A stretch of DNA of 64,000 nt from Candidatus Bathyarchaeota archaeon. GTDB lineage: Archaea > Thermoproteota > Bathyarchaeia > Bathyarchaeales > Bathycorpusculaceae. The translations under genes and the position numbers were made by a program. How positions within the stretch are numbered: the first letter of the stretch is position 1; every line of letters begins with the position of its first letter. Below, in pieces: positions 4,128 through 59,705 of the stretch. The notes beneath the pieces are model-generated. The model saw only the letters and a list, made by a program, of their open reading frames with translations, had not been told where the DNA came from and did no database searches. The stretch is from assembly GCA_963701045.1 (NCBI GenBank), contig OY969560.1, forward strand, positions 871,144 to 935,143, read 5' to 3'.

Positions 4128-4375
4128 CATTCAACATGACCTTACAACAACCAGTGATTTTTCAGCCAAAAACCATTATTGAAAAATGACTCCGCAACTA
4201 CAACAATTATAAAACAAAACCCAAAAACATGGAAAATCCAACAACAACCAGTCAACAACCCAACAGGCAATACGGTACAAAGCAAACCAAGAACACAAGT
4301 TAAAGCACAAACTGAAAATTTGGTTGTGGCACAGGGGAGTCAAACAACAACAACCAGACAAGAAGAAAAAAAACG
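4128..4375 (+). repeat. A/C-rich dispersed repeat, copy A
   Basis: TTCAACAT..CAACCAGTG..TTTT..AACCAT..TTGAAAAA start; 33/36 nt match to copy E (ACAAAGCAAACCAArAACACAAsTTAAArCACAAAC); ends AAGAAGAAAAA. Confidence 0.7.
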
Positions 4376-4477
4376 TGCCTAAGAGCTATTGTGTTTAAGC
4401 TTGAGTTAATCTATAGTAAAAAAGAAGCTGCTTATTTTTCATGTCAGTTATCGACTCATTTTTGCTACAACCTGCTT

Positions 4478-4660
4478 ATTTCAACATGCGTTATTTGCAC
4501 AACTAGTGGATTTTGCGCTACAACCATGTTTAAAAAACACCAATTCACTACAAGCAAAACCAGAAAAACCCAAAAAACAAACCAAAGCAAAAACACAACT
4601 CAACACACAACTTTCAAAAAACCCACAGCTGCTACTACAACAACCAAAGAAGAAAAATTA
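4478..4660 (+). repeat. A/C-rich dispersed repeat, copy B
   Basis: Exact 24-mer AACCAGAAAAACCCAAAAAACAAA shared with copy E; exact 26-mer AACTCAACACACAACTTTCAAAAAAC and 14-mer CTACAACCATGTTT shared with copy D. Confidence 0.8.
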
Positions 4661-4793
4661 AGAACTAAATGTTAATCATGCGCGGACAGCTGTGGCATAA
4701 AGCAAGATTTGGTCTTTTTGCTATTTCAGGGAAATCTTTAACATTCCCAGGTAACCTATCTAACACTTGACGTCTTACGGAGGAGACTTTGAG

Positions 4794-6212
4794 TTGAGCT
4801 TGCTTAGCTACGATACTTTTTGGAACGCAGTGATAACTCTGCCTATGACCAAAAAAATGCTCAAGCTCTCGCTCAAAAAATGTCCTTCATGCGGCAGAAC
4901 CGTTCTTGAAGCAGCCTTAGATAATTACTCCGGAAAAACAGACAAGCAATGTGGCAAATGCAGCGGCCTATATTCTCAAATCATCGGTTTCTGGGTTGAA
5001 TTTCTTCGCAGAAGCTTAAACATTAAACGCGAAAAAGTTAACAAGCTCCTAGCGGACCCATACGCCAAAAGAGCTGTCTTAAACCTCGCCAGAAGCTTCA
5101 CGTACATGGGCATAAAAAAACCCATTTCACTTTATGCACCTTTCCTTATAGTTTGGGATTTTACACACAAATGCAACTTGCAATGCAAACATTGTTACTC
5201 AAACAGCGGTACAATCCGCGAAGAAGAACTCACAACAAAAGAAGCCATATCAGTTGTGGATCAGATTGCAGATTCAGGAGTTACTGCTTTGGCTTTTTCC
5301 GGCGGCGAACCGTTAACGCGAAAAGATTTTTTTGAAGTTGTACGACATGCAGCAGACCGTGGGTTATATGTGTCAGTGGCTACAAACGGCACCTTGCTAA
5401 CCAAAGAAAACGTGCAGAAACTCAAGCAGGCAGGAGTAAACTACCTTGACATAAGTATTGATGGTGCATCCGCTAAAACTCACGACGAGTTCAGAGGGGT
5501 TCCAGGAGCGTTTGATAAGGCTATGGCTGGGTTGAAAAACTGCGTAGAAGCGGATTTGTGCGTTTGCATTGCGACCACAGCTACAAAAAGCAACCTTGAA
5601 GAAATGCCGGCAATTATCGATTTGGCTGAAGAAATAGGGGCAGAAAGGTTCACAAACTTTAATTTTGTTCCTGCAGGAAGAGGCAAAGCACATTACGACC
5701 AAGACCTCTCACCTCAAGAGCGCGAGAAATTGATGCGGTACCTTTTGGCTCGAATGTCAAAGGGCTGCAAAACAACCATATTGACAACTGCACCTCAGCT
5801 AGCCCGTGTTGGATTGCAATGTCAAGGATCAAGTGGAACAGGCGAAGTAACCATGTCTATGGCACATATGCAAACCGTCAAAATTACAAAAAAAGCCGTG
5901 CCCTTAGCAGATTTTATTGGAGGATGCGGCGCCGGTAGACTTTACTGTTCATTGTCACCCCAGGGTGATGTGCATCCCTGTGTGTTTTTGCCAGTTAATG
6001 TTGGCAACCTAAAAACTGAAAAATTCGAAGACATCTGGCTTAACTCGCTACTTTTCAAGTCGTTCCGTAACAGGGCAAACCTTAAGGGTTCATGCTCCAA
6101 ATGCGATTACAAGTATATCTGTGGCGGTTGCAGGGCACGCTCGGCAGCTTACCATAACGGCGACATGCTTGATGGCGACCCTGGCTGCATAATGGGAGTG
6201 AAAGGTGCCTAG
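4794..6212 (+). CDS. Radical SAM/SPASM protein with Cys-containing N-terminal extension; resembles the GMGT synthase (Gms) family
   Basis: CPSC...CGKC N-terminus, APFLIVWDFTHKCNLQCKHCY, FSGGEP, LADFIGGCGAGRLY...PCVFLP, CSKCDYKYICGGCRAR; TTG 4794 follows GGAGGAG. Radical SAM/SPASM is secure; Gms is recalled similarity only. Confidence 0.85.
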   Translation: MSLLSYDTFWNAVITLPMTKKMLKLSLKKCPSCGRTVLEAALDNYSGKTDKQCGKCSGLYSQIIGFWVEFLRRSLNIKREKVNKLLADPYAKRAVLNLARSFTYMGIKKPISLYAPFLIVWDFTHKCNLQCKHCYSNSGTIREEELTTKEAISVVDQIADSGVTALAFSGGEPLTRKDFFEVVRHAADRGLYVSVATNGTLLTKENVQKLKQAGVNYLDISIDGASAKTHDEFRGVPGAFDKAMAGLKNCVEADLCVCIATTATKSNLEEMPAIIDLAEEIGAERFTNFNFVPAGRGKAHYDQDLSPQEREKLMRYLLARMSKGCKTTILTTAPQLARVGLQCQGSSGTGEVTMSMAHMQTVKITKKAVPLADFIGGCGAGRLYCSLSPQGDVHPCVFLPVNVGNLKTEKFEDIWLNSLLFKSFRNRANLKGSCSKCDYKYICGGCRARSAAYHNGDMLDGDPGCIMGVKGA

Positions 6213-7170
6213 ATTGCCCAACTCAAAAATTGTAAAAATCTTCCAAGCCAAAGGCGACACAAGAGACATCGTTAAACAAGCCGTCGTAGGTTCAGGGCTC
6301 CGGGGAAAACGCAAAATTTTCATTAAACCTAACCTTAGCCACCCTGAATATATCCCTGGAGTGGTTACGAGTCCAGAGTTGATGCAGCAGCTTGTCGGTT
6401 TGCTCCGGGACGGCAACAGCGAAGTGATCGTTGGCGAATCTAATGGTTTTAACTATCCGTGCTGGACTGCGTTTGACAAAACCGGCATGCAAGACGCAGT
6501 TAAACGGGCAGGCGGCACAGTGATTAACCTTTCAGAGGACAAGGTGGTTAAAGTAAAATTTGCTGACGGCGTACTGCTCAAAGAACTCTATTTGCCCAAA
6601 ACCATTCTTGACGCCGACGCTGTTGTAGATTTGCCGCTTATGAAAACCCACGAATTTGCTGCTTACAGCGGCGCCATCAAAAACCTTTTTGGGTGTATTC
6701 CGAGCAATAAACGCATCTATCTTCACCCTTACCTGCCAGAAGTATTCTTTAGGCTCTACACTGTTTTCAAGCCACAACTAACTATTATGGACGCCAGAAT
6801 TGGCATTGAAGGCAACGGCCCAACCAAAGGTAAACCCGTAAAAATGGATCTTATTTTAACAGGCAACGATGCATTAGCCATTGACATAGTTTGCACTAAA
6901 ATCATGCAATTAGATTGGAAACAAACATATCTGAACTACATAGCCAAAAAAACAAGCTTCTACGAATCAACATTAAGAGTTGATGGATTACAGGTAGACA
7001 CGGTAAGCCGCAAATTTGAACCACCCAAAATAGACTTGCCCGTGAAAGCTCAAATGATGATTTATCAACATGAATACGCCACTAAATTCCTTTTTTGCAG
7101 TTTAGATATCGTTAAGCTTTTTCAGAGGGTAACTAAGGCGTATAGGCAAGAACCAATAGAAATCGCTTAA
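6205..7170 (+). CDS. DUF362 family Fe-S protein
   Basis: IKPNL, VGES, LPLMKTH, GAIKNLFG, IMDA...EGNGP; overlaps the radical SAM stop codon. Confidence 0.85.
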   Translation: MPRLPNSKIVKIFQAKGDTRDIVKQAVVGSGLRGKRKIFIKPNLSHPEYIPGVVTSPELMQQLVGLLRDGNSEVIVGESNGFNYPCWTAFDKTGMQDAVKRAGGTVINLSEDKVVKVKFADGVLLKELYLPKTILDADAVVDLPLMKTHEFAAYSGAIKNLFGCIPSNKRIYLHPYLPEVFFRLYTVFKPQLTIMDARIGIEGNGPTKGKPVKMDLILTGNDALAIDIVCTKIMQLDWKQTYLNYIAKKTSFYESTLRVDGLQVDTVSRKFEPPKIDLPVKAQMMIYQHEYATKFLFCSLDIVKLFQRVTKAYRQEPIEIA

Positions 7171-8363
7171 CTGAGAACCTCGTCATAAACTTCCATTGCG
7201 TCTTTTACAACTATGCGCCAATCATACTGGTCCACAATGGTTTTTCTCGCCTGCTGACCCATTTCCGCCGCTTCAGATGGATGCTCAAGCAAGAAAAGAA
7301 TACGATCGCTGAACTGTTTAACGTTGAAAGGCTCAACCAAAAAGCCGTTTTTACCGCTTTCAATTGTTTCAGGAATTCCACCAACCCACGTTGTAACTAC
7401 CGGCAAACCTGACGCAAGCGCTTCTAAAACTGCAAATGGATGATGCTCATAAAAAGTGCTGAACGCGAATACGTCAGCTGCTTGGTAAAGTTTGGGCAGT
7501 TTTTTATCTGGGTAGTAGCCTGTGAAAATAAGGTTATCTTTTACACCCACTTTTTCCGCGTGAGCAATGAGTTTATGCATTTCGTCGCTTTGACCTTTGC
7601 CTGAAACCACGAATTTCGCATTTTTGAAACGTTTCATAATTGGAGGCATACTTTCAATAAGAGTAAACAATCCTTTGCGGGCATATAATCTGCCAACCGA
7701 GAGAATAAGCAAGTCATCGGGGTTAAAACCAAGCTCAGATTTGATTTTACGTTTGTCCTGGGCAGGCTGGAACTTTTTAATGTCAACCCCATTGTGGATA
7801 ACTCGGATTTTGCTTTCAGGGATATGGTAATATTCGGTGAGTTCTCTTTTTGTGAAATGACTTACCGCTATTATTTTTTTGGCTCGTTCCAGCATTTTTT
7901 CCTCAAAAATTCTTAGGAACCAATTGAAGCTTACCATGAATTTCTCGTTGGCATTGAGGCGGCTAAATGGCTCACCTCGGATAGCTTCTGCCTCCCCCTT
8001 CCAAGTTGAATGCACAGTGCAAATGGTCGCTTTTCCAAAGTTTGGTGGAACTGCAAAATTGGGAGTCAGAGGCAGGTTAACGTGTGTAACGTCTATGTCC
8101 ATGTTTGAGCGTTCACTGTTAAGTTTGCGGTAGCTGTTGGCAGCAAGAAGGAAGGATTTTACTATGGGCGTTCTGGGGATCTGAAGGAAGAACACTTTGA
8201 GTTGCTCATTAACAGTGACATCCAATGTTTGGTTGGATCCAGTTACAATGCAGATGCGGTAGCCGTTTTTGAGAAGCTCATTTGACAGGTAATAGACATA
8301 GGCACCTGTGCCGCCAGAAAGAGGCCAATACTCAGGCGAAACAAAACATATACTATGCGCCAT
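7167..8363 (-). CDS. GT4 family glycosyltransferase
   Basis: EYWP..GG, IAVS, IHNGVD, GRL..RKG, E...FAVLEALASGLPVV. Confidence 0.92.
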   Translation of the reverse strand: MAHSICFVSPEYWPLSGGTGAYVYYLSNELLKNGYRICIVTGSNQTLDVTVNEQLKVFFLQIPRTPIVKSFLLAANSYRKLNSERSNMDIDVTHVNLPLTPNFAVPPNFGKATICTVHSTWKGEAEAIRGEPFSRLNANEKFMVSFNWFLRIFEEKMLERAKKIIAVSHFTKRELTEYYHIPESKIRVIHNGVDIKKFQPAQDKRKIKSELGFNPDDLLILSVGRLYARKGLFTLIESMPPIMKRFKNAKFVVSGKGQSDEMHKLIAHAEKVGVKDNLIFTGYYPDKKLPKLYQAADVFAFSTFYEHHPFAVLEALASGLPVVTTWVGGIPETIESGKNGFLVEPFNVKQFSDRILFLLEHPSEAAEMGQQARKTIVDQYDWRIVVKDAMEVYDEVLS

Positions 8364-9357
8364 GCCTTCTTCCCCCTTTTCCCACCAAAAAGTTAACTGT
8401 TGTTTTTATTGCACCCACAAACCATGCGAAAGAACGCACAAAATACAGCACCACAAGTCGCCAAGTGGAAACGTCATGGAATTTTAATTTTATTTTCGCC
8501 GCTGAATAACCGAAATAGATAAGCATGAACGCTAAGATTGCGGCTGAAATGTACCAAAATAATCTGATTAGCGGAACTATTCCAACGATGAATGACAAGA
8601 CGGTCGCCAAAAGTAAGATGGGTTGAATGTTCATGCCGACATCAGTGATTTCGTCGCCTCGGGCTAGGTGACCATGTTTAAAGTAAAGACGTAAAGTGTT
8701 TTTGCCGTACTGCATTTGTTGGCGATAATAAGCTCGAAGAGTTGGACGGTTGAAGTGGTAACATACCGCTTTGGGTTCATAAGCTATTTTGTATCCTTTA
8801 GCGCTAACCCTGAAACCGAGGTCTGTGTCATATTGGCTTGGTAGTTCTTCATCCCATCCACCAGCTTCATCAATTAAAGCTCTCTTCATGAGCAGATTCA
8901 TGGTGGCAATGCGACCTGTATAATGTCCTATGCGACTATATCGGTTCTTGAGTTCATAGCCGATGCTTTTTGCCCAAGGATTATTGCTGTTCCAAGTTTC
9001 AATAGTTCCGCTGACTCCGGCTACTTGTGGTTCATCTAGATGAGGCACTAGAAGTCTTAGCCAATTGGGTTCAACCTTTGCGTCTGAATCAATAAAGCCC
9101 AAAATAGGGTACTTTGCGATTTTCATCACGTAGTTGTAGGCTGCTGGACAATTTAGTTTTATAGATACAACTTGGACTTGGAGTTCTTGGGCTATTTCTA
9201 ATGTTTTGTCTTTTGAGAGGCCATCCATCAAAATGACTTCAAAATGGTCTTTCGGATAATCCAGTGACAAGATGGATTTGAGACATTCCATGATGGTTAG
9301 CTCATTATTGTATGATGCCACTATGATTGAAACTTTAGGAAGTTCTTGAGCAGCCAT
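8353..9357 (-). CDS. GT2 family glycosyltransferase with C-terminal TM helices
   Basis: VSIIVASYN, DGLSKD, FIDSD (DxD), DTDLGFR, RQQMQY. Confidence 0.9.
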   Translation of the reverse strand: MAAQELPKVSIIVASYNNELTIMECLKSILSLDYPKDHFEVILMDGLSKDKTLEIAQELQVQVVSIKLNCPAAYNYVMKIAKYPILGFIDSDAKVEPNWLRLLVPHLDEPQVAGVSGTIETWNSNNPWAKSIGYELKNRYSRIGHYTGRIATMNLLMKRALIDEAGGWDEELPSQYDTDLGFRVSAKGYKIAYEPKAVCYHFNRPTLRAYYRQQMQYGKNTLRLYFKHGHLARGDEITDVGMNIQPILLLATVLSFIVGIVPLIRLFWYISAAILAFMLIYFGYSAAKIKLKFHDVSTWRLVVLYFVRSFAWFVGAIKTTVNFLVGKGGRRHGA

Positions 9358-9361
9358 CCTG

Positions 9362-10060
9362 TTACCCCTTCGAATAAGCTAAAACTATTGAAAGCAAAAT
9401 TTTGGAGCCGTCAACCAGCGGATCCACGCCTGATCTGCCGTATGTCCGCTGCTGAAATGTAATCGGTACCTCGGTGACTCGGAAATGTTTTTTGGCTGTC
9501 TTTACAAGCATTTCAGACTCTATTTCGTATCCGCCTGATTTCAGCTTTTGGCTTTTCAAGACATCACGTGTCATAGCTCGATAACCTGATTGGCTATCTG
9601 TTATTGCAACTCTCGTTAAAAGCTCAATAAAGTCGTTGAAGATTCGCACACCAAAAGCGTTGAGTTTTCTAGCGGCAACATGCTTTTGTTTTAGGTATCT
9701 TGAACCAATCACTAAGTCAGCTTTGTTTTGTAGAACTGGTGCCAAAACTTCATCAAGTTCTTCGGGCCAGTGGGAACCATCTGAGTCAATTGTAATTATT
9801 ACGTCACCTTTTGACTTCAGAAAGCCCGCTCGGAGGGCATAACCTTTGCCTAAATGTTCTTTCAATGTAAAAAGTCTAATTTTGTATTTTTTAGCTATCT
9901 GAAGCGATCGGTCATACGAGCGATCGTCCACAACAAGAATTTCGGTTTGTATGCCGATTTTCTGCGTTGCTTTCTTAGTCCGCTCGATTATGTCGCCTAT
10001 AGTGGATTGCTCGTTGTACATGGGAATTATTATGGAAAGCAGCATTTGAGGTTGCTTCAC
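9362..10060 (-). CDS. GT2 family, DPM1-like (polyprenol-phosphate glycosyltransferase)
   Basis: SIIIPMYNE, VVDDRSYD, GKGYALRAG, IDSDGSH, GSRY, TDSQSGYRA, EVPI. Confidence 0.9.
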   Translation of the reverse strand: MKQPQMLLSIIIPMYNEQSTIGDIIERTKKATQKIGIQTEILVVDDRSYDRSLQIAKKYKIRLFTLKEHLGKGYALRAGFLKSKGDVIITIDSDGSHWPEELDEVLAPVLQNKADLVIGSRYLKQKHVAARKLNAFGVRIFNDFIELLTRVAITDSQSGYRAMTRDVLKSQKLKSGGYEIESEMLVKTAKKHFRVTEVPITFQQRTYGRSGVDPLVDGSKILLSIVLAYSKG

Positions 10061-10147
10061 TTAGCTTTTAGATGCCAATGGAAGACCTTATAAAGTTTGG
10101 CACAGCAACTCTGTAAGCAAACTAAACCTAAAGAGCTTGAACCCCAC

Positions 10148-10690
10148 ATGGAAACCGCCACCAAAGTTTATTCAGACAGAAAAATGTGGTTTTCAATGTG
10201 GTTCCTGGGGGCAATCGTGACTTTCGGAGCAGCTTTCTTTCCAATGTATTACCGTCTTGTACAAGGTAGAAACAAACATTTCCAACATGACAATGAGTGG
10301 AGAGAACAAATTTCAGTGTACCTGAAAAAACACGGCAAAGAGGCACCTGCAGTAAACGAAAGATTGTTGGTTCGTCATGCAAAGGTGTGGGCTGCAAGCA
10401 TTATTCTGATCATACCAAACTTTGTCATCTTGTATTTACTGTCAAAGGATTTAGCTGTGCATGAACATAAGCAGGATACTTTTTTAACGACGGCTTTCCC
10501 AGAACGGCTGTTCATGCCTCAAACAATACCGATAAAAACTTATGTTTTAATCACAATTGTTACTTTGGGTGTCGGCGGAATTTACTGGCTATATAAAGTT
10601 GTTAACTTATATAATGCCCACTTTAAAGCACAGTCTCTGGTTGAAAAAGAAATAGGCAGACTAATGGAGGAACAAGAAGTTGTCGAGTAA
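10148..10690 (+). CDS. Membrane protein (DUF4234-like, two internal repeats)
   Basis: Repeated IVTFG...YYRL..RNKHF / IVTLG..GIYWLY..YNAHF units; overlaps cobD start. Confidence 0.55.
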   Translation: METATKVYSDRKMWFSMWFLGAIVTFGAAFFPMYYRLVQGRNKHFQHDNEWREQISVYLKKHGKEAPAVNERLLVRHAKVWAASIILIIPNFVILYLLSKDLAVHEHKQDTFLTTAFPERLFMPQTIPIKTYVLITIVTLGVGGIYWLYKVVNLYNAHFKAQSLVEKEIGRLMEEQEVVE

Positions 10691-11795
10691 CTGCAAAGAA
10701 CGCAGATTTATCAGCCATGGAGGAGATATCTGGGGTTTCAGCCGAAGATGTAATGTTCCCATAGAAGAAGTGCTTGAATTTAGTGGACCCATAAACTTTC
10801 TTGGACCATCACCAAAAGCTGTCGAAGCCGTCAAAGATTACGCTAAATACATAAAATACTATCCTGACCCAAATCCGATTGAATTCAAAGAAAAAATCGC
10901 AAAATACGTAGGGCATGGTGTGGCAGCGGAAAAGGTTATTTTAGGCAACGGCTCCATCGAGCTAATTTACGCCATATCCGAAGTTTTGCCAAATTGTTTT
11001 AATGCGGTGATTCCTGTGCCCTCTTTCTCCGAATATGAGAAAGCTGCGCTCCGCGTAGGTGGCAAAGTGATTTTTGTCCAATTGCCAGAAGATTTCTCGC
11101 TTAACAACGAGGAAATAAAAAAGGCAGTAACGAATGAAACAAGAATCTTATGTATATGTAACCCCCACAGCCCATCTGGAAAACTTTACAGCAAAGCAGA
11201 GCTGACGGATCTTTTGGATTTCTGTGAGAAACGGGATATCATTTTTAGCGTTGACGAGAATTATATCGAGTTTGCTGATAAAGGAGACGAAAACACTTTA
11301 GCAGGTTTGGTTAACGAGTACGAGAACCTTTTTGTTATTCGTTCAATCACCAAATTCTATGGCATGGCTGGTATACGTTTCGGCTACGGGTTGGCTTCAA
11401 ACAGTTTAGTTAAGAAGTTGGAGGATGTTCGTTTGCCATGGAGCATTAATGGCTTAGCCTGTTTTGCCACATTGGCGGCGTTTAACGACAAAGAATTCAT
11501 TAAAAACACCAAAGTTGTCATCGCCGAAAACCGACTTGAACTTGCTAAGGAGCTTGGTGAAATTGATGGTTTGTATGTTTACCCGTCCACAACCAACTTC
11601 CTGCTTGTCAAAATCCAAAAAGGCAAAATCACCAGCACCAAACTGAAAGAAGCCCTAACTAACCAAAGAATCCTTATTCGTGACTGCTGCACGTTCATGG
11701 GTTTAGACGATCACTACTTCAGAATAACCATACGCTCGTCCAAAGACAATCTAAAACTAACAGAAGCCATTGCAAGAATAATGAAAGATAATTAG
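10680..11795 (+). CDS. cobD: L-threonine-O-3-phosphate decarboxylase CobD (class I/II PLP enzyme)
   Basis: N-terminal HGG, YYPD, GNGS.ELI, PSFSEY, CNPHSPSG, DENYIEF, RSITKFYGMAGIRFGY, ILIRDC. Confidence 0.8.
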   Translation: MSSNCKERRFISHGGDIWGFSRRCNVPIEEVLEFSGPINFLGPSPKAVEAVKDYAKYIKYYPDPNPIEFKEKIAKYVGHGVAAEKVILGNGSIELIYAISEVLPNCFNAVIPVPSFSEYEKAALRVGGKVIFVQLPEDFSLNNEEIKKAVTNETRILCICNPHSPSGKLYSKAELTDLLDFCEKRDIIFSVDENYIEFADKGDENTLAGLVNEYENLFVIRSITKFYGMAGIRFGYGLASNSLVKKLEDVRLPWSINGLACFATLAAFNDKEFIKNTKVVIAENRLELAKELGEIDGLYVYPSTTNFLLVKIQKGKITSTKLKEALTNQRILIRDCCTFMGLDDHYFRITIRSSKDNLKLTEAIARIMKDN

Positions 11796-11951
11796 AAGAA
11801 ACTAAATGAAAACATCTTTTAGTTTAAGAGCTTAAGTAAATCGAATAAGGCGTTTTTAAATCTTGATTTGAGTAATCTTAGTTTGGTTGGGTTAACTAAA
11901 CCAGTAAAGTGCCAAAATGTGTTGAGATGAAGCTAAGTCTATTTCCTTTAT

Positions 11952-12206
11952 TTACCTGTATTTCAGTTTCAGCGCCAAGATTGCAACACTTTGGATAAGA
12001 GCCAAGGAGTTTGCAAGAATGATCGCTATATCTTGGCGAAAAAACCCGTAGATGAACCATAAAGAGACGCCACCGCAATAGAGCGTGAACATCAGAGCTG
12101 AGATGTCTTTAGTTGATTTTGTCCTGTAAATCTTCATTAGCTATGGCAGAAGGCACATGGTTGTGAAAGCTGCGGCAATTAATCCTAAAACCGTTATTGA
12201 GTCCAT
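11952..12206 (-). pseudogene. SemiSWEET/PQ-loop sugar transporter with an in-frame TAG
   Basis: MDSITVLGLIAAAFTTMCLLP*LMKIYRTKSTKDIS...LWFIYG...IILAN; TAG at 12141-12143 replaces the Gln of the PQ motif. Confidence 0.85.
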
Positions 12207-12506
12207 CATACTATTGCATCTCAATTAACATTCGATAACATTTCATATTTAATTTGAAAATTTATTTTTGAAGAATCCATTGGGAAAAAAATTCTTCTGT
12301 CAGAGTAGGAACGTCAGGATTTCGTAATCATAATGTTAATAAAATCGGTTGATCCAATCCAATTGTAGAGCGACTTTCTACTACAAGGTCTAATTGAGAT
12401 TGAGTGTGATGGGAAAAACAACAAGTTTTTCAAAAAGGTTAAAACCTAAGAAATCATGCCGAAACCGCAAATCAACCCATAACCCGCAATACCTAAAAGT
12501 GTTACT

Positions 12507-15391: not shown

Positions 15392-15393
15392 AT

Positions 15394-26070: not shown

Positions 26071-26306
26071 ATTAAATCGCCGACAAGTTTGACGCGTTTG
26101 AGGTTTTCATCTCTGTGAGGTGCCATTTCTAACTCTTCAGTTAAGTCCTTACCTGCATTATGCATGCCTAAGTGTTCCCCGTCAAGCCAGAAACTGCTGT
26201 CTGAAACATCATAAACCTTGCCTCCGTAAGCAAGATACGCAGGCTTCCCGTTTCTTCCATCATTTTGCTCCAGTTCTTGTTTAGTAACTTTTTTTGTTTC
26301 AGCCAT
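26067..26306 (-). CDS. Cytochrome b5-like heme/steroid-binding domain protein
   Basis: EL...DGRNGKPAYLAYGGKVYDVS..W..GEH...H.AGKDLT...APH. Confidence 0.9.
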   Translation of the reverse strand: MAETKKVTKQELEQNDGRNGKPAYLAYGGKVYDVSDSSFWLDGEHLGMHNAGKDLTEELEMAPHRDENLKRVKLVGDLI

Positions 26307-26394
26307 AAAAACCCGTTTTCCTTGTATTGTTAGACTTTGAACCCTTATATTTAAATTGTTTAGATTTTTCTTTTTTCGATTGGTTAAATGCGTT

Positions 26395-26540
26395 TGTCTA
26401 TTTTATTTTTGTTCTTTTTGTGTGGGTGTGGGGCTGTAAATTTGCACACTACACTTGGGGGTTTGGATTTGTTTGTTTTCTTGGTTTAGGTTGTTTTCCA
26501 GTTGTTGTTTGAGTGTGCGGAGTTTGGTTGTTCCACACAG
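26395..26540 (-). repeat. A/C-rich dispersed repeat, degenerate copy C
   Basis: Same composition and AAAAGAACAAAAA-type end; weaker sequence match than the other copies. Confidence 0.4.
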
Positions 26541-35052: not shown

Positions 35053-35214
35053 TAAAAACTTCGCTGTATTTTCCAGTTTTTTTAACTTAGAAATTTAGGA
35101 AATTCCTCAAAAATATGTTATTTGTGCAATTGATATTTGACGCCATAATCCTACTCATCTCCAAAGTGCAACGTATATTAAAAAATCTTTGTCAAGACAA
35201 ACTGGTGATTAGAC

Positions 35215-35360
35215 TTTTCTTCTTCTTTGGTGTTGTGGTAGTGATTTTGCGTTTTTTGAAAGTTGTGTGTTGAGTTATGTTTTCATTTTGCGTTATTTTT
35301 TAGGTTTCTTTAGTTGTGCTGTAATGCAAAAACGTTTTTTCAAACATGGTTGTAGTGCAT
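35215..35360 (-). repeat. A/C-rich dispersed repeat, copy D
   Basis: Reverse complement is colinear with 4515-4660, including exact 14- and 26-mers. Confidence 0.8.
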
Positions 35361-35361
35361 C

Positions 35362-35657
35362 AATACCGCAAAATCAGGGACAATTGGAACAACTTCAATT
35401 ACTCCAGCAATCAAACATCCAGTCAAATTTTTACAACCTTTCATTGTCAAAACAAAGGCGGTTTTGACGTTAGTTTCACTGTTCTATTAACATTAACTAA
35501 CGCACGTTTTAATCAAACTAATAATCAATCATACAAATTAGTCAATGACACAACAGCCAAAATATCATTTAATTTGCATGGTCAAGAAAGAGCTGACACC
35601 GACGTTTATTTCTTAGTTGATAGCAACGCAATTTACTTTAAGATTTCAATTGCATAA
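35362..35657 (+). pseudogene. Fragment of a probable secreted, N-glycosylated protein lacking its 5' end
   Basis: Open frame with several NxS/T sequons and beta-strand pattern; its only ATG lies inside repeat copy D. Confidence 0.4.
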
Positions 35658-49453: not shown

Positions 49454-49462
49454 AACAGTAAC

Positions 49463-50493: not shown

Positions 50494-50568
50494 GGGTCCG
50501 TAGCTCAGTCAGGCTAGAGCATCGGACTCTTAATCCGAGGGTCGCGGGTTCAACTCCCGTCGGACCCG
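50494..50568 (+). tRNA. tRNA-Lys(CTT), intronless, CCA not encoded
   Basis: GGGTCCG/CGGACCC acceptor stem, TCGGA-CTCTTAA-TCCGA anticodon arm, GGTTCAACTCC T-arm, TATA-like element upstream. Confidence 0.96.
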
Positions 50569-50826
50569 CTACAACAAATCTAAAAATTGATTTTTCTGCC
50601 CTCTAATTTCATTTTGTTATAGATGTAGAATCGCCTTTTTTCCAAATCTTTTTCCTTTTCGGTATTGAAATGATGTTTGGTTTCTTCAATTGTTTTTCTT
50701 AAATTAACTTGATATGGTTCAGTTCTCTGATTGATTTTTTAATTACAACGAGTTTTGGTAAAACTTTGAGAATTTGCTTCAGACTGCTAAAGCTTATAAG
50801 CATCTAGCAAACAAAAAGGGCACCTA

Positions 50827-50874
50827 TGGAAAGAGTTAATCCACGAAATTACTTTTTCTTGGATAGTTCTTCCA
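50827..50874 (+). promoter_or_regulatory. 5'-UTR long stem-loop upstream of beta-propeller gene 2
   Basis: TGGA..AGAGTT..ATCCA..GAAA / TTTC..TGGAT-AGTTCT-TCCA arms ending at the AAGGAGAA RBS; TATA CTTATAAG at ~50793. Confidence 0.55.
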
Positions 50875-50891
50875 GAAGGAGAATAGGAAAA

Positions 50892-53534: not shown

Positions 53535-53717
53535 ATCCACAAACAACAAACCTTTTTTCTTTTTTTTGTTCTCTAAGAATCTTTAGGTTTAATTTTTAGA
53601 GAGCATACTCAATTCTCAAACACCCACGTTTTCCATTGTTTGGTTTGCACTGGTGCGGATGTTGTACCTAGCCCGCCTTGTAGGGCAGAAAATCAGTTAA
53701 TCGTTAGCATTAAACGA

Positions 53718-53972
53718 AGCCAAAAGGTGGCAAACTTACATTTCATAGCTACAATGGTGCAAACGAAAATATAATTATCTTTAAGGATACTGGTGTCGGC
53801 ATACCTGAAAAGGTTAAGAGAAAATTGTATGCGCCAATGTTTAAGACTGAGTCTAAAGGTCAAGCTTCGGATTAGCAGTAATCAACCGTATGACTGAATC
53901 ATTAGGCGGAACGGTTGCTTTCGAGAGCCAAGAATGCAAAGTCACGTAGTTTATTGTGCGTTTGCCATCCAA
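53718..53972 (+). pseudogene. Remnant of a sensor histidine kinase HATPase_c domain
   Basis: PKGGKL...KDTGVGIPE...PMF.T.SKGQ/(frameshift)FGLAVINRMTESLGG.V.FES....T*FIVRLP. Confidence 0.8.
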
Positions 53973-54247
53973 AAACAATGAACGGCAAAATAGACTTCTG
54001 GTCAGAGATTCACTCGCTCAAGGCTCAACAATATTTGAATCTGCAAACGATTACGTAAATCATCGGTACAAATGCTCAGCAATCAACTTAGCAGATGATC
54101 CAGTAGGTGCTTCCGAGTAAATGTTCTCTGGAATGGTCGATAACCGTCGGACCTGCCCATCTTTCTGAAAATTATCCTGAATTTTCTTAATTCTTTTCTA
54201 AAGCCCTTTAAGCAGGTGGCATGTTACCTTTGCCCATAGGGATATCG

Positions 54248-55189
54248 ATGCCATCAATAGAAGCGGTAAATTTAACGAAACAATATGGCGCTTTCACAGC
54301 CTTGTCAGGATTGAACCTGAAGATTGAAGGAGCAAAATGCGTCGGTTTTCTAGGTCCAAACGGCTCAGGAAAAACAACCACGTTGAAAATGTTTACCGAC
54401 TTAATTAGGCCAACAAAAGGTGAAGCCCTCATCAACGGAGTTAACGTTCACCTTGAAAAGAAAAAAGCCTTGGCTGCAGTAGGCACTTTGATTGAAACTC
54501 CCGAAATTTATTCTTCGCTTACTCCCAGAGAAGCTCTTAGCATGATTGCTGAGATTCGAGGAGTGCTTGCTCAGGACGTAAAAAAGCAGGTTGAAGAAGT
54601 TGTTGCAGAAGTTCATATGGAAGAGTGGATTGACAAAAGGGTCGGTAAGTTTTCCAAAGGTATGAAGCAAAGAATATGCATTGCTTCCGCGTTGCTTGGT
54701 AAACCTTCAATTATTATTTTAGATGAGCCTACAACTGGACTTGACCCTCGTGGTATGAGTGAAGTTAGGGACATAATCAAATCGCTTAAGGGCAAAGACC
54801 GCCTCATCTTTATGAGTTCACATATTTTAAGTGAAGTTTCCGATGTTTGCGACGAAGTAGCAATGATAGATCATGGCAAATTGATCGTGTACGATACACT
54901 TTCAAATGTTACAGCTAAATTTTCAGGCGGAAACAACGTCGTCGAAGTGGGTTTGGCTCGTCCAGTTGAAGACAAATCAATCGCCCAGACTATTTCTGCT
55001 TGGTCCGACGTAGTTAAGGCAGATGTCGTGGATGACAAAAACATAAAAATAATCTTCAAAGGCGGCTTAGAAGTGCAAGAACGCTTGCTCAATGAAATCG
55101 TGAAACTAAATCTTGGCGTAATAAGTTACAAAACCGCTTCATCTGAACTTGAAGACGTGTATTTAAAGCTGATAACCTCAACGTTGTGA
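54248..55189 (+). CDS. ABC-2 type transporter ATP-binding protein
   Basis: GPNGSGKTT, FSKGMKQR, LDEPT, SSH. Confidence 0.95.
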   Translation: MPSIEAVNLTKQYGAFTALSGLNLKIEGAKCVGFLGPNGSGKTTTLKMFTDLIRPTKGEALINGVNVHLEKKKALAAVGTLIETPEIYSSLTPREALSMIAEIRGVLAQDVKKQVEEVVAEVHMEEWIDKRVGKFSKGMKQRICIASALLGKPSIIILDEPTTGLDPRGMSEVRDIIKSLKGKDRLIFMSSHILSEVSDVCDEVAMIDHGKLIVYDTLSNVTAKFSGGNNVVEVGLARPVEDKSIAQTISAWSDVVKADVVDDKNIKIIFKGGLEVQERLLNEIVKLNLGVISYKTASSELEDVYLKLITSTL

Positions 55190-56046
55190 TGAACATGACT
55201 CAAACAAATGTAGAATCTAAAAACTCAGTTCCAGGTAGCATGGCTCAAGTTGGGACAATCATGAAGTATACTTTGCTTGATTACTTAAGGTCCCGAAGAT
55301 TCTTTATCATGCTGATTATAACCGTACTCATAAGTGTGCTTCTAACGGTTCTCGTAGGATACTATCGGCCAGAAGGTTTTCTGTCTTCCAACTTAACATT
55401 CTATAGCAACTGGTGGGGAAGCTCTGTTACTTTCGTAGTTATACTTTCAGCGATTTTCTTCGGCGGTGATGCAATTTCTGGAGAGTTCCAAAATAAAACA
55501 GGCTACTTCGGTGTTCCAAATCCAATTCGGCGTTCATCAATCTATGTTGGAAAATGGGTGGCAGCATTTATTGCTTCACTTGTTATGTTGGGGATTTTCA
55601 CAATTGTTACTGTAGGAAATGGTCTCTATTACTTCTCAGGCGTACCTTACCAATTTGGTGAATCACTTATATTTGCCTTAATCTACTTGATTGCAGTTCT
55701 CGGATTCACTTTCTTCTTCAGTTCACTATTCAAAAGCAGCTCAATGTCGATACTGCTCACGGCTATTCTATTCTTGTTTGTATTCTCACTGATTCAAACA
55801 CTTGTTTCGTCACTTGTCCAAATAGAACCTTGGTTCATCCTAACTTATGGATCCACGATCATTGGCAATGTATTGACAGTGCCTTATCCAGCTCATATGA
55901 CCACCGCCAGTTTTGGTCCAGGAGCACGTGTGCAATTAACAACGTATAATGCAACAATTCCTGAAGGACTCGCTATTATGCTAATTTACTTCGCCGTCAC
56001 AGCGATCTTAGGCTTGTTACTGTTCGAAAGAAAAGAATTCAACTAA
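55186..56046 (+). CDS. ABC-2 type transporter permease
   Basis: DAISGEFQNKTG...PIRR..GK, six TM helices. Confidence 0.9.
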   Translation: MMNMTQTNVESKNSVPGSMAQVGTIMKYTLLDYLRSRRFFIMLIITVLISVLLTVLVGYYRPEGFLSSNLTFYSNWWGSSVTFVVILSAIFFGGDAISGEFQNKTGYFGVPNPIRRSSIYVGKWVAAFIASLVMLGIFTIVTVGNGLYYFSGVPYQFGESLIFALIYLIAVLGFTFFFSSLFKSSSMSILLTAILFLFVFSLIQTLVSSLVQIEPWFILTYGSTIIGNVLTVPYPAHMTTASFGPGARVQLTTYNATIPEGLAIMLIYFAVTAILGLLLFERKEFN

Positions 56047-56119
56047 GAAAATAAACATTTATCAATTCAAATATTCATTGCTATGCAGTTCCGAATTCAA
56101 ATTGGTTTTTTCAATCCTT

Positions 56120-56536
56120 TCATAGCAGAACTTTAAAAATGCCTAGAGCGATTCCCATAAATGCTGTTGCTACTATAACTATGGCGCTTAACAGTGAAGG
56201 ATAAAGTTTCCTTGGTTGAATTCCAAGTAATTTGCCCAATATTGATAGCTGTATAGGCGAGAGAACTAGTATACCTGCTATTAGGCCATAGCAACCATAT
56301 TTATCGATGAATTTTTTTCCTCTCGAAAGCTTTCTTTCAAGCCAGCTCCTTAGACCTTTTTTCCAACATAGCAACCTATCTATTAGAAATACAACTGCAA
56401 TTATAGTTAGAAAATTTATCGCTATAGTTGCTGGAAATACTAGTATCGGATTGTAACCAATACCGACCCCATAGATGATGCCTATGCCGCATTCAAGAAA
56501 AACTGATAAGATTATGAAAACTAATAACTCGTACAC
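56120..56536 (-). CDS. Small multidrug export/DedA-like membrane protein
   Basis: Hydrophobic helices flanking KFIDKYG..GL. Confidence 0.55.
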   Translation of the reverse strand: MYELLVFIILSVFLECGIGIIYGVGIGYNPILVFPATIAINFLTIIAVVFLIDRLLCWKKGLRSWLERKLSRGKKFIDKYGCYGLIAGILVLSPIQLSILGKLLGIQPRKLYPSLLSAIVIVATAFMGIALGIFKVLL

Positions 56537-56714
56537 TTATGGATCCATCAACTTAGAGCTGAAAATAAATAATATTAATTTTTTGGAATTAGAAAAAGAA
56601 AGCGTTTTTCAAGCATTTTATCATTTGAAGTTTTTGAGAGAGCATTCGACAGTTCTTAATATATTGCCGAGAGTGTAGGTTAGACGTGTCAAGGGCTAGT
56701 TTGGCGGAAACCGG

Positions 56715-57704
56715 ATGACTGAGATTGAAAATAAAGAAGTTTCATGGAAAGTTTTTGATATTCCTGTTTACGGTACCATTACAGCGCCAATAACTGAAGG
56801 GTCTCATTCAGCGGTTGTCTTTGTTGCTGGCAGTGGTCCAACTGATAGAGATTGGCGTTCACCTCTTTTGCCTGGAACAAACGGGAGCGCCAAACTATTG
56901 GCTGAAGCTCTAGCAAGCCAAGGTTTTGTTACTCTGCGTTATGATAAACTTGCCTCTGGCCCGAACGTTAGAGAAAATATACCTAAACTTGTTGGCAAAA
57001 TAAGTATGCAAAGTCACTTAGAAGAACTCAAAGGCGCTGTAGAAACATTAATTCTTGAAAAGAACGTGGATAAAAATAATGTTTTTGTGCTAACTAACAG
57101 CGAAGGCGCTATCCATGCCGTAAACTACCAGCTGCAGACGAAGAATAATCGTTTCAAAGGATTGGTGCTTACCGGCGCGCCTGGAAGAGCGATTGGTGAA
57201 TTGGGTCGCAGCCAAATCTTTGAACAAATCAAGAACATGTCTAACGCCCAAACTATCATGAAAGCTTACGATGACGCTAACTCTGCTTTCTTGGTAAGTA
57301 AACCCACAAAATTAGATTCTTCACTTCCCGAAGGTATTAAAATGGTTCTTCTTAGCCTTGAAAGTCCCTACAATTTGCCGTTTAGCCGAGAATTATGGAT
57401 GTATCGCCTCTCAGAACATCTTGCAAAGATTAACGAACCAGTACTAGTTGTTATAGGCAAAAAGGACATTCAAGTTGATTGGAAAATTGATGGAGCATTG
57501 TTAGAGCAGTCAACTCCTGAGAAAACTACCGTCGTTTTTGTATATCCAGAAAACGCTAATCATGTTCTAAAACATGAAGAAATACCCATTGAAAAAATCA
57601 ATGCTCAAAATGCAACATTAAATTATAATGCTCCAGATGCAAAACTTGATTCGGAAGCACTTGAAGCAATTTTTAGGTGGTTACAAAAGCAAACAAAGAA
57701 ATAA
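56715..57704 (+). CDS. Alpha/beta hydrolase (S9-like)
   Basis: AGSGPTDRDW, LRYDK, TNSEG elbow, GKKDIQV, ANHVLK. Confidence 0.88.
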   Translation: MTEIENKEVSWKVFDIPVYGTITAPITEGSHSAVVFVAGSGPTDRDWRSPLLPGTNGSAKLLAEALASQGFVTLRYDKLASGPNVRENIPKLVGKISMQSHLEELKGAVETLILEKNVDKNNVFVLTNSEGAIHAVNYQLQTKNNRFKGLVLTGAPGRAIGELGRSQIFEQIKNMSNAQTIMKAYDDANSAFLVSKPTKLDSSLPEGIKMVLLSLESPYNLPFSRELWMYRLSEHLAKINEPVLVVIGKKDIQVDWKIDGALLEQSTPEKTTVVFVYPENANHVLKHEEIPIEKINAQNATLNYNAPDAKLDSEALEAIFRWLQKQTKK

Positions 57705-57729
57705 CAAATTCAGAAAAACTTTGTATCTT

Positions 57730-58461
57730 CTACTTCCATTTTGTTAGTATCTCTTCTCTGCGGAAAGTGGATTTGCTCAAGAAGTAGAGAATTACGTCGA
57801 TAATTAAGATGATGATGGCGAAAATCAAAAGGTTCTCAACACTGAATGTAAAAATTCCTTCTACACCTGCAAAGAAGACTGCAACAAAAGGAATAAACAT
57901 GAGACCAGCAATCTGGTTTGCACCCCTAACGTCATTTACTTTGGATGATGCAATCACAGCTACTTCAATGCTGAGAATGGCGGAAAGAGGCGCGAGCATC
58001 AATAGCATGATGCCAGCGTTCCAGTTGGGAAAATAGTAGTAGCCTAATCCACTGTTGTATAATACATAGTCTGTTGCTGCCATGTAGATTGTTGCTCCTG
58101 CCCACGTTGAGAGCATAGGCGGAATGAACGCTGCGATACTTTTTCCAAGTAGAATCTCTCCGTCGCTTGTCGGCGTAGCAAGCAGTGGCTCCAAAGTCTT
58201 CTCAACTTTTTCACCCACTATACTGTAAGCTGCAATTGTGCTGGGCAGAAAAGTTGCTAAAATAACGAAGATGTAAACGATTGAATCTGCACCTAATGAT
58301 ATTGAGCCTGGAATTCCGTTTGCTATTTGGTTCTTTAAAACAAATGAGAAAACAATGGCGATAAGCAACGGTAGTCCTATGGTATAGAATATGATACTTC
58401 TCTTTCTGCTTATTACTTTTAGTTCTTTTTGAGCTATTTTCCACGGCATCCAAGTTGTCAT
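57730..58461 (-). CDS. ABC-2 type transporter permease
   Basis: SIVGEKVEKTLEPLLATP..EILLGK, FRREEIL. Confidence 0.92.
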   Translation of the reverse strand: MTTWMPWKIAQKELKVISRKRSIIFYTIGLPLLIAIVFSFVLKNQIANGIPGSISLGADSIVYIFVILATFLPSTIAAYSIVGEKVEKTLEPLLATPTSDGEILLGKSIAAFIPPMLSTWAGATIYMAATDYVLYNSGLGYYYFPNWNAGIMLLMLAPLSAILSIEVAVIASSKVNDVRGANQIAGLMFIPFVAVFFAGVEGIFTFSVENLLIFAIIILIIDVILYFLSKSTFRREEILTKWK

Positions 58462-59381
58462 TGTGCGTTCTCCCTTACAAGTTTCAAATAAGCCTCTTCA
58501 AGCGAACTGCTGGTCACCGTAACGGTTTCGATTCGTCCTCCAGCTGCAACAATTGCGTTTATCATGTCAGGGTTCTCATCTTCAGGGTTCGCAACATCAA
58601 AAGTCAATTTGTTACTTTCTCTGACCATATTCTTGACTTTTAGTTTCTTTAGCGAATCAATAATGGCTTCGTTTATTTGTCTGAGTTGAATTACGGTTTT
58701 TCTTCCGTGGATAGAGCTTTCAAGTTCTTGAGGAGTACCTACAGCCATAAGCTTGGTGTTTAATATGCCGATTCTGTCGCAGACGCGTTGTGCCTCGTCG
58801 AGGTTGTGCGTGTTTAGGAAAATGGTTTTCTTTTCTTTTTTTAATCCAAGTATGAATTCTCTTACTGTTTTTGCAGACTCAGGGTCCAGATTCGCGGTTG
58901 GTTCATCCATGAAAATTAATTCAGGATTATGAATTAGTGCTCGCGCTATTGCTAATTTTTGTTTCATTCCTTTGGAGAATGATCCAGCTAGAACGTTTCG
59001 TTTCTCCCACAGTCCAAGTAGCTTTAGGAAGTATTCATTGCTCTCTTTTCTTTTTGAGTCAGTAAGCCTGTATAATGTTCCATAATAATCTAAGTTTTCG
59101 TATGCGGTTAGCGACTCGTAGAGACCCACGTTATCCGGGACGAGCCCGATCATCTTTCTGATCTTCGCAGAATTCTCTGGCTGACCAATCTCGTAGTCGC
59201 CAATCCAGGCGTTACCGCTTGACTTTGCAATCAGGCAACATAGCATTCTAACTGTAGTGGTTTTGCCCGCTCCATTTGGTCCTAGAAAGCCAAAGATTTC
59301 GCCCTGATTTACTTTAAAAGTTACGTTATCCACTGCTGTTAGATCGCCGAACTTTCTTGAAAGGTTCTCGGTCACAATCAT
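58458..59381 (-). CDS. ABC-2 type transporter ATP-binding protein
   Basis: GPNGAGKTT, FSKGMKQK, MDEPT, NTH. Confidence 0.95.
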   Translation of the reverse strand: MIVTENLSRKFGDLTAVDNVTFKVNQGEIFGFLGPNGAGKTTTVRMLCCLIAKSSGNAWIGDYEIGQPENSAKIRKMIGLVPDNVGLYESLTAYENLDYYGTLYRLTDSKRKESNEYFLKLLGLWEKRNVLAGSFSKGMKQKLAIARALIHNPELIFMDEPTANLDPESAKTVREFILGLKKEKKTIFLNTHNLDEAQRVCDRIGILNTKLMAVGTPQELESSIHGRKTVIQLRQINEAIIDSLKKLKVKNMVRESNKLTFDVANPEDENPDMINAIVAAGGRIETVTVTSSSLEEAYLKLVRENAQ

Positions 59382-59509
59382 TGTTTCAATCCTTCTCGAT
59401 TAGGCTTCAATTTTTCATCATAAAAACATCAGACATATTAAAGATTAAATGGAAACCAACTATTAGAGCAATTAGATTTAACTCAAAATATCGTTGACAA
59501 TATTTGAGT

Positions 59510-59705
59510 TTTATTTTTCTTTTCTTTAGTTGTGTGTGAATAATTTTGCGTGCTTTTCTATTTTTTGGGTTTGTGTTTTAAGTTGTGTTTTTGGTTTGCT
59601 TTGTTTTTTGGGTTTTTCTGGTTGTGGATAGGTTGTGGAAGTGGGTTTTTTCAAATGGTTGTTGTGAAAAACCGACTGGTTGTGGAGATACTGTATGTTG
59701 AAAAT
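59510..59705 (-). repeat. A/C-rich dispersed repeat, copy E
   Basis: Reverse complement shares an exact 24-mer with copy B and 33/36 nt with copy A. Confidence 0.8.

Follow-up and report, generated by a model that had tools for sequence, protein, structure and literature searches.

MITEs are defined by terminal inverted repeats (TIRs) and, usually, also by target-site duplications. Two reviews (PMC10969869, PMC3184786) describe them as small, non-coding, non-autonomous, multi-copy, mainly intergenic and lineage-specific, with presence/absence differences. The A/C-rich repeat that we analysed in a 64,000-nt stretch of Candidatus Bathyarchaeota DNA (the window) has the same small, non-coding, multi-copy, intergenic and lineage-restricted habit as the MITEs of bacteria and archaea. 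However, it has neither terminal inverted repeats nor target duplications, is strongly strand-asymmetric and not palindromic, and no related autonomous IS with the same ends was found in the genome that holds the window (G000, an assembly 69% complete).

REP/BIME, BOX and ERIC sequences are likewise dispersed extragenic repeats that carry no transposase gene of their own, are modular or composite and lie near gene ends and promoters; BOX elements of pneumococcus are modular, and their composite forms are copied as units. REP/REPIN sequences are short G+C-rich palindromes that form a stem-loop, often stand as inverted pairs and co-occur with a single-copy RAYT (Y1) gene, whereas the common form of the A/C-rich repeat has no significant fold on either strand and is not tracked by a Y1 (RAYT-like) enzyme. 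Eukaryotic SINEs share with the repeat a defined 5' end, an A-rich 3' tail and the lack of inverted ends; in both, subfamilies expand within single lineages, and some copies are composite or truncated at the 5' end. Yet SINEs depend on a reverse transcriptase and produce target duplications, while no RVT_1 domain was found in G000 or the high-copy genomes, no duplications are detectable and no internal polymerase promoter was identified in the repeat. IS200/IS605-derived elements (PATEs) and IS110 elements are, like the repeat, TIR-less, duplication-free and oriented, and insert beside specific short sequences. Against this likeness, the ends of the IS200/IS605 copies in G000 are unrelated to the repeat, subterminal hairpins are absent from its simple type, and Y1 and DEDD enzymes were not found in several element-rich genomes. 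Reused or 'mobile' promoters also place similar sequence ahead of unrelated genes; in the case of the A/C-rich element, however, the ancestral promoter is kept between element and start codon, and some copies face no gene. Promoter regions that are highly similar although they precede non-homologous genes have been catalogued in prokaryotes (PMC3575422). The family fits none of the MITE, REP, SINE, IS200- or IS110-derived classes. A literature search found no such repeats for Bathyarchaeia, and repeats of this small, interspersed kind have, to our knowledge, hardly been described from uncultured archaea.

Copies in the window and their anatomy

An earlier note had proposed five copies in 64 kb. 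Four of them (A–D) are homologous: local alignment scores for B-C, B-D, C-D and A-D lie 8.6–26 SD above 200 dinucleotide-preserving shuffles. The fifth, 'copy E' (26395..26540, minus strand), is an A/C-rich spacer that precedes a cytochrome b5-like gene and has no demonstrable family membership. It was rejected because it reaches only z ≤ 1.4 against every other copy (dinucleotide shuffles); it is not among the matches at E ≤ 1 in a full-sensitivity profile search of the window, and its region alone scores 7.8 bits in nhmmer with a bias of 19.7. The exact matches reported between distant copies are present (24 nt, 4558–4581 with 59600–59623; 26 nt, 4597–4622 with 35251–35276; 0 expected in shuffles), and a repeat finder run on the window returned matches of 56 nt at 91% and 95 nt at 78%.

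Low-complexity A/C-rich spacers might resemble each other by chance, with no common origin. Two-letter composition does raise apparent identity, and copy E illustrates that A/C-rich spacers without demonstrable homology occur in G000. For A–D, such chance likeness is contradicted by the scores against dinucleotide shuffles and by the long exact matches, which composition-matched shuffles fail to give. It is also contradicted by the colinearity of family copies over 130–270 nt with sharp common ends in pairwise alignment, and by profile matches that are confined to one genus. We regard it as refuted by these comparisons, with a probability close to nil.

Copy B (4479..4657, plus strand; 78 bits, E 1.9e–23) is of the simple type, sharply bounded at its 5' end and A-rich at its 3' end; homology between B and D begins exactly at 4479 (genome 875622). 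The same alignment sets the 5' end of copy D (59514..59703, minus strand; 67.6 bits, E 3.2e–20), a full-length simple copy upstream of an ABC-transporter ATPase operon, at genome 930846. Copy C (35214..35375, minus strand; 73.6 bits, E 4.4e–22) is a simple copy with a 5'-truncated head that aligns with B over 143 nt and lies in the divergent spacer between a NAPRTase gene and a 112-aa ORF. Copy A (4130..4368, plus strand) is matched by the profile at 4143–4366 (50.6 bits) and 4144–4368, and aligns over 141 nt with the first module of a composite copy at genome 102592–102731. As read from its alignments, A is an internally deleted composite, in which the head and a truncated first body are joined to the 3' part of a second body.

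By alignment, the repeat is a non-coding element of roughly 190–330 bp overall that lies between genes. A single unit (~180–250 bp) has four parts: a 5' end, a head, a body and a 3' block with a tail. The 5' end is well defined (TTTCAACAT in G000) and loosely resembles the TATA boxes of G000 tRNA genes. The head consists of 2–3 direct boxes YACAACCANTG with a short T-run between boxes, the body is composed almost only of A and C, and a conserved 3' block, CAACAACAACCAAAGA, is followed by the A-rich tail. Composite forms of ~330 bp combine a truncated unit with a full unit whose head forms a hairpin, and they are themselves copied.

The description of the A/C strand as poor in G and of its RNA as unstructured agrees with our data. 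G makes up 6–13% of this strand in the copies, and in the simple type its predicted folding does not exceed that of shuffles (z 0.41 and –1.15; MFE –6.6 to –9.8 kcal/mol for ~145 nt). The other strand of the simple type likewise has no significant fold (z 1.74 and –1.71), and the hairpin head is limited to the composite subfamily (z –3.1). As also noted earlier, copies lack terminal inverted repeats: the window search returned only copy-to-copy matches on opposite strands with no arms inside a copy, and alignment-defined copy ends are not complementary. Target duplications, in turn, did not emerge from the comparison of flanks (34 copies; 5' flank against own 3' flank 9.97, against the 3' flanks of other copies 10.77 ± 2.89), although short duplications at old copies could have been lost. 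Direct repeats picked out by eye around B and D failed this own-flank versus cross-flank control. DNA curvature was discarded as well, since A-tracts show no 10–11 bp helical phasing and the only internal periodicities are ~12–13 and 17–18 bp. TATA-like motifs in the head are not conserved across copies, no conserved promoter precedes the element (flanks are unrelated between copies), and no oligo-T terminator follows the tail.

Distribution and turnover between species

A nucleotide profile search found 15 copies at 11 loci in the 1.06-Mb contig, with tandem pairs at 4 of the 11 loci. The further copies anticipated earlier exist beyond G000 too: 15 of the 60 same-genus genomes contain the element, each with 1–5 or more copies, and one sister genome has at least 11. 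At E ≤ 1e–4 the profile had no match in 145 genomes that represent 78 further genera of the class. When 185,579 species were scanned, profile-confirmed matches came only from records titled Candidatus Bathyarchaeota. A virus or plasmid origin was rejected, as viral contigs (IMG/VR) yielded no profile-confirmed match. Among the genomes searched, the family is, by profile, confined to one genus of Bathyarchaeia.

We compared orthologous loci, in all cases between species only, and found the empty sites and presence/absence differences that the earlier note had suggested looking for. The spacer upstream of the radical SAM/SPASM gene that follows copy B measures ~700 nt here versus ~90–190 nt, element-free, in sister species. 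B is missing at 29 same-genus orthologous loci and in the metagenome relative L233 (92% identical), where an A-like copy is present. The spacer at the C locus is 1155 nt long here versus ~360 nt in G013, which has no element there; at the D locus the closest relatives (G045, G056 and G053) carry no element upstream of the orthologous gene, and none of the five closest genomes has an element at the C or the D locus. Exact insertion junctions could not be placed between G000 and L233, whose spacers are too diverged. From these filled and empty loci, together with the copy numbers, it is shown that the family multiplied and was gained or lost locus by locus as species diverged.

In a tree of the copies, those of G000 form two G000-only clades and those of G002 group together. 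Such genome-wise clustering could also stem from gene conversion. G000 copies are 70–91% alike, and so give no sign of current activity. An orthologous copy in G071 and G011 is 76–78% identical, compared with 85–87% for flanking non-coding and 98% for coding sequence, and its G067 orthologue has lost the body. At this one orthologous locus, in low-complexity sequence that is hard to align, the divergence gives no sign of selection on the element.

Genomic context and possible functions

The A/C strand had been said always to point towards the next gene. This holds for the four window copies, with gaps of ~133–225 nt, but not significantly for the family: in tandem-gene contexts, with orthologous loci collapsed, ~11 copies are co-oriented and 5 anti-oriented, and at one G000 locus the neighbouring genes converge on the element. 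A replication-strand bias was rejected, since copies alternate in orientation along the contig. The TATA-type core promoter of the radical SAM/SPASM gene (4731..4744, plus strand) lies downstream of copy B and outside the repeat. Its motif resembles G000 tRNA-gene promoters and recurs, at the same distance to the start codon, in 11 sister species without the repeat. More generally, the elements in the window stand upstream of the conserved promoters that belong to the neighbouring genes themselves. Genes downstream of copies are functionally unrelated, and a regulon was rejected on this ground.

That downstream genes keep a conserved promoter of their own, and that the same genes with their predicted promoter occur in sister species without the element, also argues against a dispersed cis-regulatory module. 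Such a module, a 'mobile promoter' or an upstream activating or insulating element with protein-binding head boxes, would supply an extra promoter or a shield. It would explain why elements are positioned 30–75 nt upstream of TATA boxes. All four window copies and most G000 copies end 113–240 nt before a co-oriented start codon. The 2–3 direct repeats of one head box look like an operator array, the 5' terminus is loosely TATA-like, and the prokaryotic promoters catalogued before unrelated genes (PMC3575422) offer a precedent. However, the downstream genes share no function, about a quarter of the copies face away from the next gene or sit at convergent genes, the TATA-like motifs vary between copies, and A-tracts are unphased at 10–11 bp. 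The orthologous locus also has no excess conservation, with the body deleted in G067. We consider a regulatory role rather unlikely.

Still less probable are genes for unstructured, G-poor ncRNAs, which might, for example, sponge up a protein or form a long, unstructured leader and so promote translation of the downstream gene. The extreme strand asymmetry is conserved across species and the A/C strand is predicted to be unstructured, both as expected of such RNAs; furthermore, the tail has no oligo-T terminator, so that a transcript could run into the downstream gene. Yet at gathering score Rfam recognised one tRNA only in the window and, near a sister-genome copy, nothing at E ≤ 0.01. The element carries no conserved upstream promoter, its flanks differ between copies, homopolymer runs often contain indels, and the element diverges as rapidly as the sequence around it. 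The conserved radical SAM promoter is downstream of the element, which places the element outside that mRNA unless a second start exists. The ncRNA option of the earlier note thus finds no structure, Rfam match, carried promoter or terminator, or excess conservation in its favour.

As for small protein-coding genes, the 49-codon ORF of copy B ends in Cys and is next to a SPASM enzyme, like a RiPP precursor. Alternatively, copies could descend from a low-complexity coding segment rich in Lys, Thr, Gln and Pro. In favour of a coding origin, many copies have an ATG and then an A-run at the same place, T/G-poor sequence is open in all frames, and A/C-rich codons specify Pro/Thr/Lys linkers in real proteins of relatives (L177). 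Nevertheless, the statement that copies have no conserved reading frame proved correct for both strands. Six-frame translations of 11 loci gave no shared frame, and the frame, frame shifts and stop positions vary between copies. At a position where B encodes Gln, C is interrupted by an in-frame stop; D lacks a start codon, and in one copy a stop comes immediately after the ATG. Of 60 genomes in the genus, 56 conserve the radical SAM gene, but copy B, and hence its ORF, is missing at 30 orthologous loci (29 genome representatives and L233). We reject the RiPP-precursor idea for B because the ORF is missing from all orthologous loci examined; other copies precede unrelated genes. The coding reading is contradicted at the sequence level and is very improbable. 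A scar of integration events, another option raised earlier, is unlikely, as copies have neither a tRNA or att-like context nor duplications at their flanks. A chromatin-organising or insulator site, also raised earlier, fares less well than a mobile element; A-tracts in the repeat are not helically phased.

Mode of spread and significance

Candidate mobilisers do not co-occur consistently with the element, and all three enzyme families considered (RVT_1, Y1_Tnp and DEDD_Tnp_IS110) were rejected. Reverse transcriptase (RVT_1, PF00078) is present in 6 of 60 genomes, not the element-rich ones, with no match in G000 (69% complete) or any high-copy genome. The Y1 transposase (PF01797) occurs in 7 of the 16 genomes that have the element and in 12 of the 45 that lack it, and the IS200/IS605 type is absent from G071, G060, G067 and G061. 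The IS110 DEDD transposase (PF01548) is absent from G000, G071, G067, G061, G011 and G002. The IS200/IS605 copies of G000, given their unrelated ends, were discarded as an autonomous source. One of them abuts a repeat at genome 704.4 kb, where it inserted independently at its TTTAT target. In the contig of this 69%-complete assembly, no transposase has further head or tail matches beside it.

The earlier proposal of an element spread through the genome, for example a TIR-less, non-autonomous mobile one, fits the 15 copies at 11 loci, the empty sister sites, the stepwise gain of A and then B, and the genome-specific clades. A–D are probably lineage-specific, non-coding, non-autonomous interspersed repeats, selfish or neutral DNA that would have spread by DNA-level copy-in. 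The family is most likely ordinary selfish DNA. Copy-in would leave no inverted ends and no detectable target duplication, and the mobilising enzyme may be encoded elsewhere or have been lost. The element seems prone to land beside existing copies, as the tandem pairs at 4 of 11 loci suggest, and copies would persist where no promoter or coding region is broken. Oligo-T is an archaeal intrinsic terminator; copies whose T-run-rich complementary strand faces an incoming transcript may therefore be purged, which would give a weak co-orientation with genes.

It is unlikely, though conceivable, that the copies represent an undescribed form of archaeal DNA mobility, in which an unrecognised recombinase or an RNA intermediate would move a short, oriented element that has no TIRs, makes no target duplication, and carries direct repeats in its head and an A-rich tail. 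Such an element would home to spacers immediately before promoters or to sites adjacent to copies of itself, with the G-free transcript or DNA strand as the functional substrate.

The family is easily recognised and restricted to one genus, and its locus-by-locus variation between species makes it usable as a marker for the history of strains and species. It also warns against mistaking the spacers that contain it for genes of regulatory RNAs or peptides; RiPP mining could be misled by the 49-codon ORF ahead of the radical SAM/SPASM gene. Since the family fits no described class and none of the three obvious enzyme families follows its distribution, it raises a specific question, amenable to testing, about the spread of such DNA in archaea.

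Repeat copies in the window and their anatomy

A repeat finder aligned copies B (4479–4657, + strand) and C (35214–35375, −) over 95 nt at 78% identity, B and D (59514–59703, −) over 56 nt at 91%, and A (4130–4368, +) and D over 42 nt at 88%. Low-complexity sequence inflates alignments in comparisons of this kind. When scored against 200 dinucleotide-preserving shuffles per copy, the local alignments stood far above the null (z = 22.6 for B–C, 26.3 for B–D, 8.6 for C–D and 11.2 for A–D), and the exact 24- and 26-nt matches between copies that the earlier note reported are present, with zero expected by chance. Chance similarity of A–D is therefore vanishingly improbable and effectively excluded. 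The same note had counted a fifth copy, E (26395–26540, −), which fails every test: z ≤ 1.4 against all other copies (dinucleotide shuffles), no place among window matches to the family profile at E ≤ 1 with filters off, and, in a search of this region by itself, 7.8 bits with a composition bias of 19.7. We rejected E as a family member; it is spacer DNA rich in A and C, at most a relic beyond recognition. The spacer containing it, 5' of a cytochrome b5-like gene (26306–26540, −), matches the repeats in A/C-richness without detectable homology, so membership of the family is not needed for such composition to arise or persist.

Pairwise alignment including 200-nt flanks revealed sharp ends: B–D homology starts exactly at TTTCAACAT, and homology between the copies at 704 and 801 kb of the contig terminates within the A-rich tail. 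Compared over 35 distinct copies in at least 10 genomes, the repeat has a head of two to three direct boxes (YACAACCANTG) separated by a T4–T6 run, an ATG plus A-run motif 3' of these boxes, a body almost exclusively of A and C, and its most conserved block, CAACAACAACCAAAGA, close to the 3' end. The genome under study, G000, holds two subfamilies: a simple type (B, C, D and the copy at 616 kb) and a composite type of ~330 bp (102, 683, 704 and 801 kb), in which a truncated and a full unit meet at a fixed junction. A is a composite copy with an internal deletion. In the composite second head, short inverted motifs are nested within one another and fold (z = –3.1); at 801.7 kb (L024:3730–3860), and also at 683, 704 and 102 kb, it contains at least five CCCAAG/CTTGGG motifs in a nested hairpin, which the simple type lacks. 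This head might serve as a site of recombination or protein binding. In the simple type, neither strand folds better than its shuffles, in line with the proposal that RNA from the A/C strand would be unstructured. We regard a function as unstructured RNA as quite improbable.

As the sequence had suggested at first reading, there are no terminal inverted repeats, either in the window repeat search or in the pairwise-aligned ends, and neither strand has a conserved reading frame. A 49-codon ORF within B (4521–4670, +; ATG at 4521, last residue Cys), ~125 nt 5' of a radical SAM/SPASM gene, was considered as a RiPP precursor and rejected as a by-product of T/G-poor sequence, being missing from all orthologous loci examined. 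A peptide gene is thus very improbable and effectively excluded. Rfam has no family matching the repeat, whose A-tracts lack helical phasing. A separate 133-nt segment (L179:1736–1885; G000:C1:758763–758896), also without an Rfam match, is ~80% conserved between species, occurs at several sites in the sister genomes G060, G011 and G002, and in one sister genome sits immediately 5' of a repeat copy.

Distribution, gain and loss

The suspicion of a genome-wide element was borne out by an iterated nucleotide HMM, which found 15 copies at 11 loci in G000, a single contig of 1,058,941 bp scored 69% complete (same-genus genomes measure 2–3 Mb); the window spans its positions 871144–935143. Tandem pairs occupy 4 of the 11 loci. 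Nine loci fall within 616–989 kb, ~37% of the contig; this crowding may reflect local spread or be a post-hoc pattern. A sequence-only covariance model, R1, detected the family in 15 of 60 same-genus genomes, sampled with strict filters; 145 genomes spanning 78 other genera of the class yielded no match (E ≤ 1e–4). A gapped exact pattern scanned over 185,579 species, one genome each, gave many chance matches in unrelated bacteria, and R1 confirmed Bathyarchaeota records only; it confirmed none of six IMG/VR pattern matches. The public records with the repeat are named 'Candidatus Bathyarchaeota archaeon' and are mostly MFD soil and sediment MAGs. Pattern matches in termite-gut Bathycorpusculum MAGs (L177, L171) proved to be Pro/Thr/Lys-rich protein linkers in A/C-rich DNA, not repeat copies. 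Sister genome G071 (CAWEZP...) carries at least 11 copies, many ~90% alike.

Orthologous loci differ in presence of the element. The spacer between the MobA-like and radical SAM genes measures ~700 nt in G000 versus ~90–190 nt in sister species with the same gene order; R1 found no element 5' of the radical SAM gene in 29 orthologous loci, and the five closest genomes are also empty at the C and D loci. In the metagenome contig L233, which encodes a radical SAM protein at 92% identity, the conserved promoter comes directly after an A-like copy, and B is missing. Hence either A is older and B was added later, or B was lost in L233. Target duplications, a check proposed in the earlier note, did not appear: own-flank scores (9.97) versus cross-copy scores (10.77) gave no copy-specific duplication. 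Some loci are common to G071, G011, G067 and G002. In the core tree G000 copies split into two clades exclusive to that genome, and those of G002 cluster together; such clustering points to amplification within lineages or to concerted evolution.

Only one shared locus aligned well, and there the element is 76–78% identical between G071 and G011, versus 85–87% for flanking non-coding and 98% for adjacent coding DNA. The orthologous copy in G067 has lost its body, with head joined to tail, and that in G002 lacks its head. Such divergence, at this single locus, would be expected of neutral DNA whose homopolymers are prone to slippage.

Relation to genes and promoters

Every window copy is followed by a gene in the same orientation, with A preceding B. 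Measured from the 3' end of the copy, B stands ~137 nt from the radical SAM/SPASM gene, C 225 nt from a 112-aa ORF and D 133 nt from an ABC ATPase gene. The claim that the A/C strand faces the next gene therefore holds for A–D but not family-wide. Among 42 distinct copies classified by context of simple ORFs of at least 100 aa, 17 were tandem co-oriented, 5 tandem anti-oriented, 10 in divergent and 5 in convergent spacers. Collapsing obvious orthologues left, in tandem contexts, ~11 co-oriented versus 5 anti-oriented, which is not significant, so the 'polar' rule is a tendency at best.

TATA-like boxes follow C (35173–35190) and D (59434–59449), and these resemble G000 tRNA promoters in style. 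In a comparison with 11 sister species, the TATA-type promoter of the radical SAM gene, GAAATCTTTAACAT (4731–4744), and the Shine-Dalgarno site of this gene proved conserved, and both lie downstream of B, which places the element outside the ancestral transcription unit. The Shine-Dalgarno-like GGAGGAG and TATA-type box are conserved genus-wide; the start codon (4794, +) is apparently TTG in G000 and ATG at the aligned position in sister species. No common function links the genes downstream of repeats (radical SAM, ABC transporter, acyl-CoA synthetase, TPP enzyme, DNA glycosylase, surface protein, riboflavin kinase operon, methyltransferase). Overall, despite its position before promoters in the window, we consider a regulatory module unlikely.

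Mobilisation and nature of the family

Insertions without inverted ends are produced by reverse transcriptases, IS200/IS605 Y1 transposases and IS110 DEDD transposases. Reverse transcriptase (PF00078) had no match in G000 or any element-rich genome, IS110 transposase (PF01548) was not found in six element-bearing genomes including G000, and Y1 transposase (PF01797) was not found in G071, G060, G067 and G061, each absence being weakened by MAG incompleteness. G000 has four IS200/IS605 copies with Y1 tnpA, all outside the window (704430–706300, 785 kb, 80.6 kb and 997.7 kb); their left ends are identical and unrelated to the repeat. All four sit immediately after TTTAT(A), and for the one abutting the 704-kb repeat the TTTAT target belongs to the G/T strand of the repeat. 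That IS copy is followed by a 361-aa ORF, possibly tnpB; the 997.7-kb copy has an in-frame TGA.

With its 15 copies at 11 loci, empty orthologous sites and lack of inverted ends, the family agrees with the non-autonomous mobile element suspected earlier. We think it probable, though far from certain, that it is a genus-specific, non-autonomous interspersed repeat, selfish or neutral DNA; it belongs to none of the defined classes of small repeats. Such a repeat would have accumulated in spacers where it is harmless, by a mechanism leaving neither inverted ends nor detectable duplications, and new copies would tend to land beside existing ones. T-runs are archaeal terminators; copies presenting many of them to incoming transcription may have been removed, which would leave the weak co-orientation with genes.
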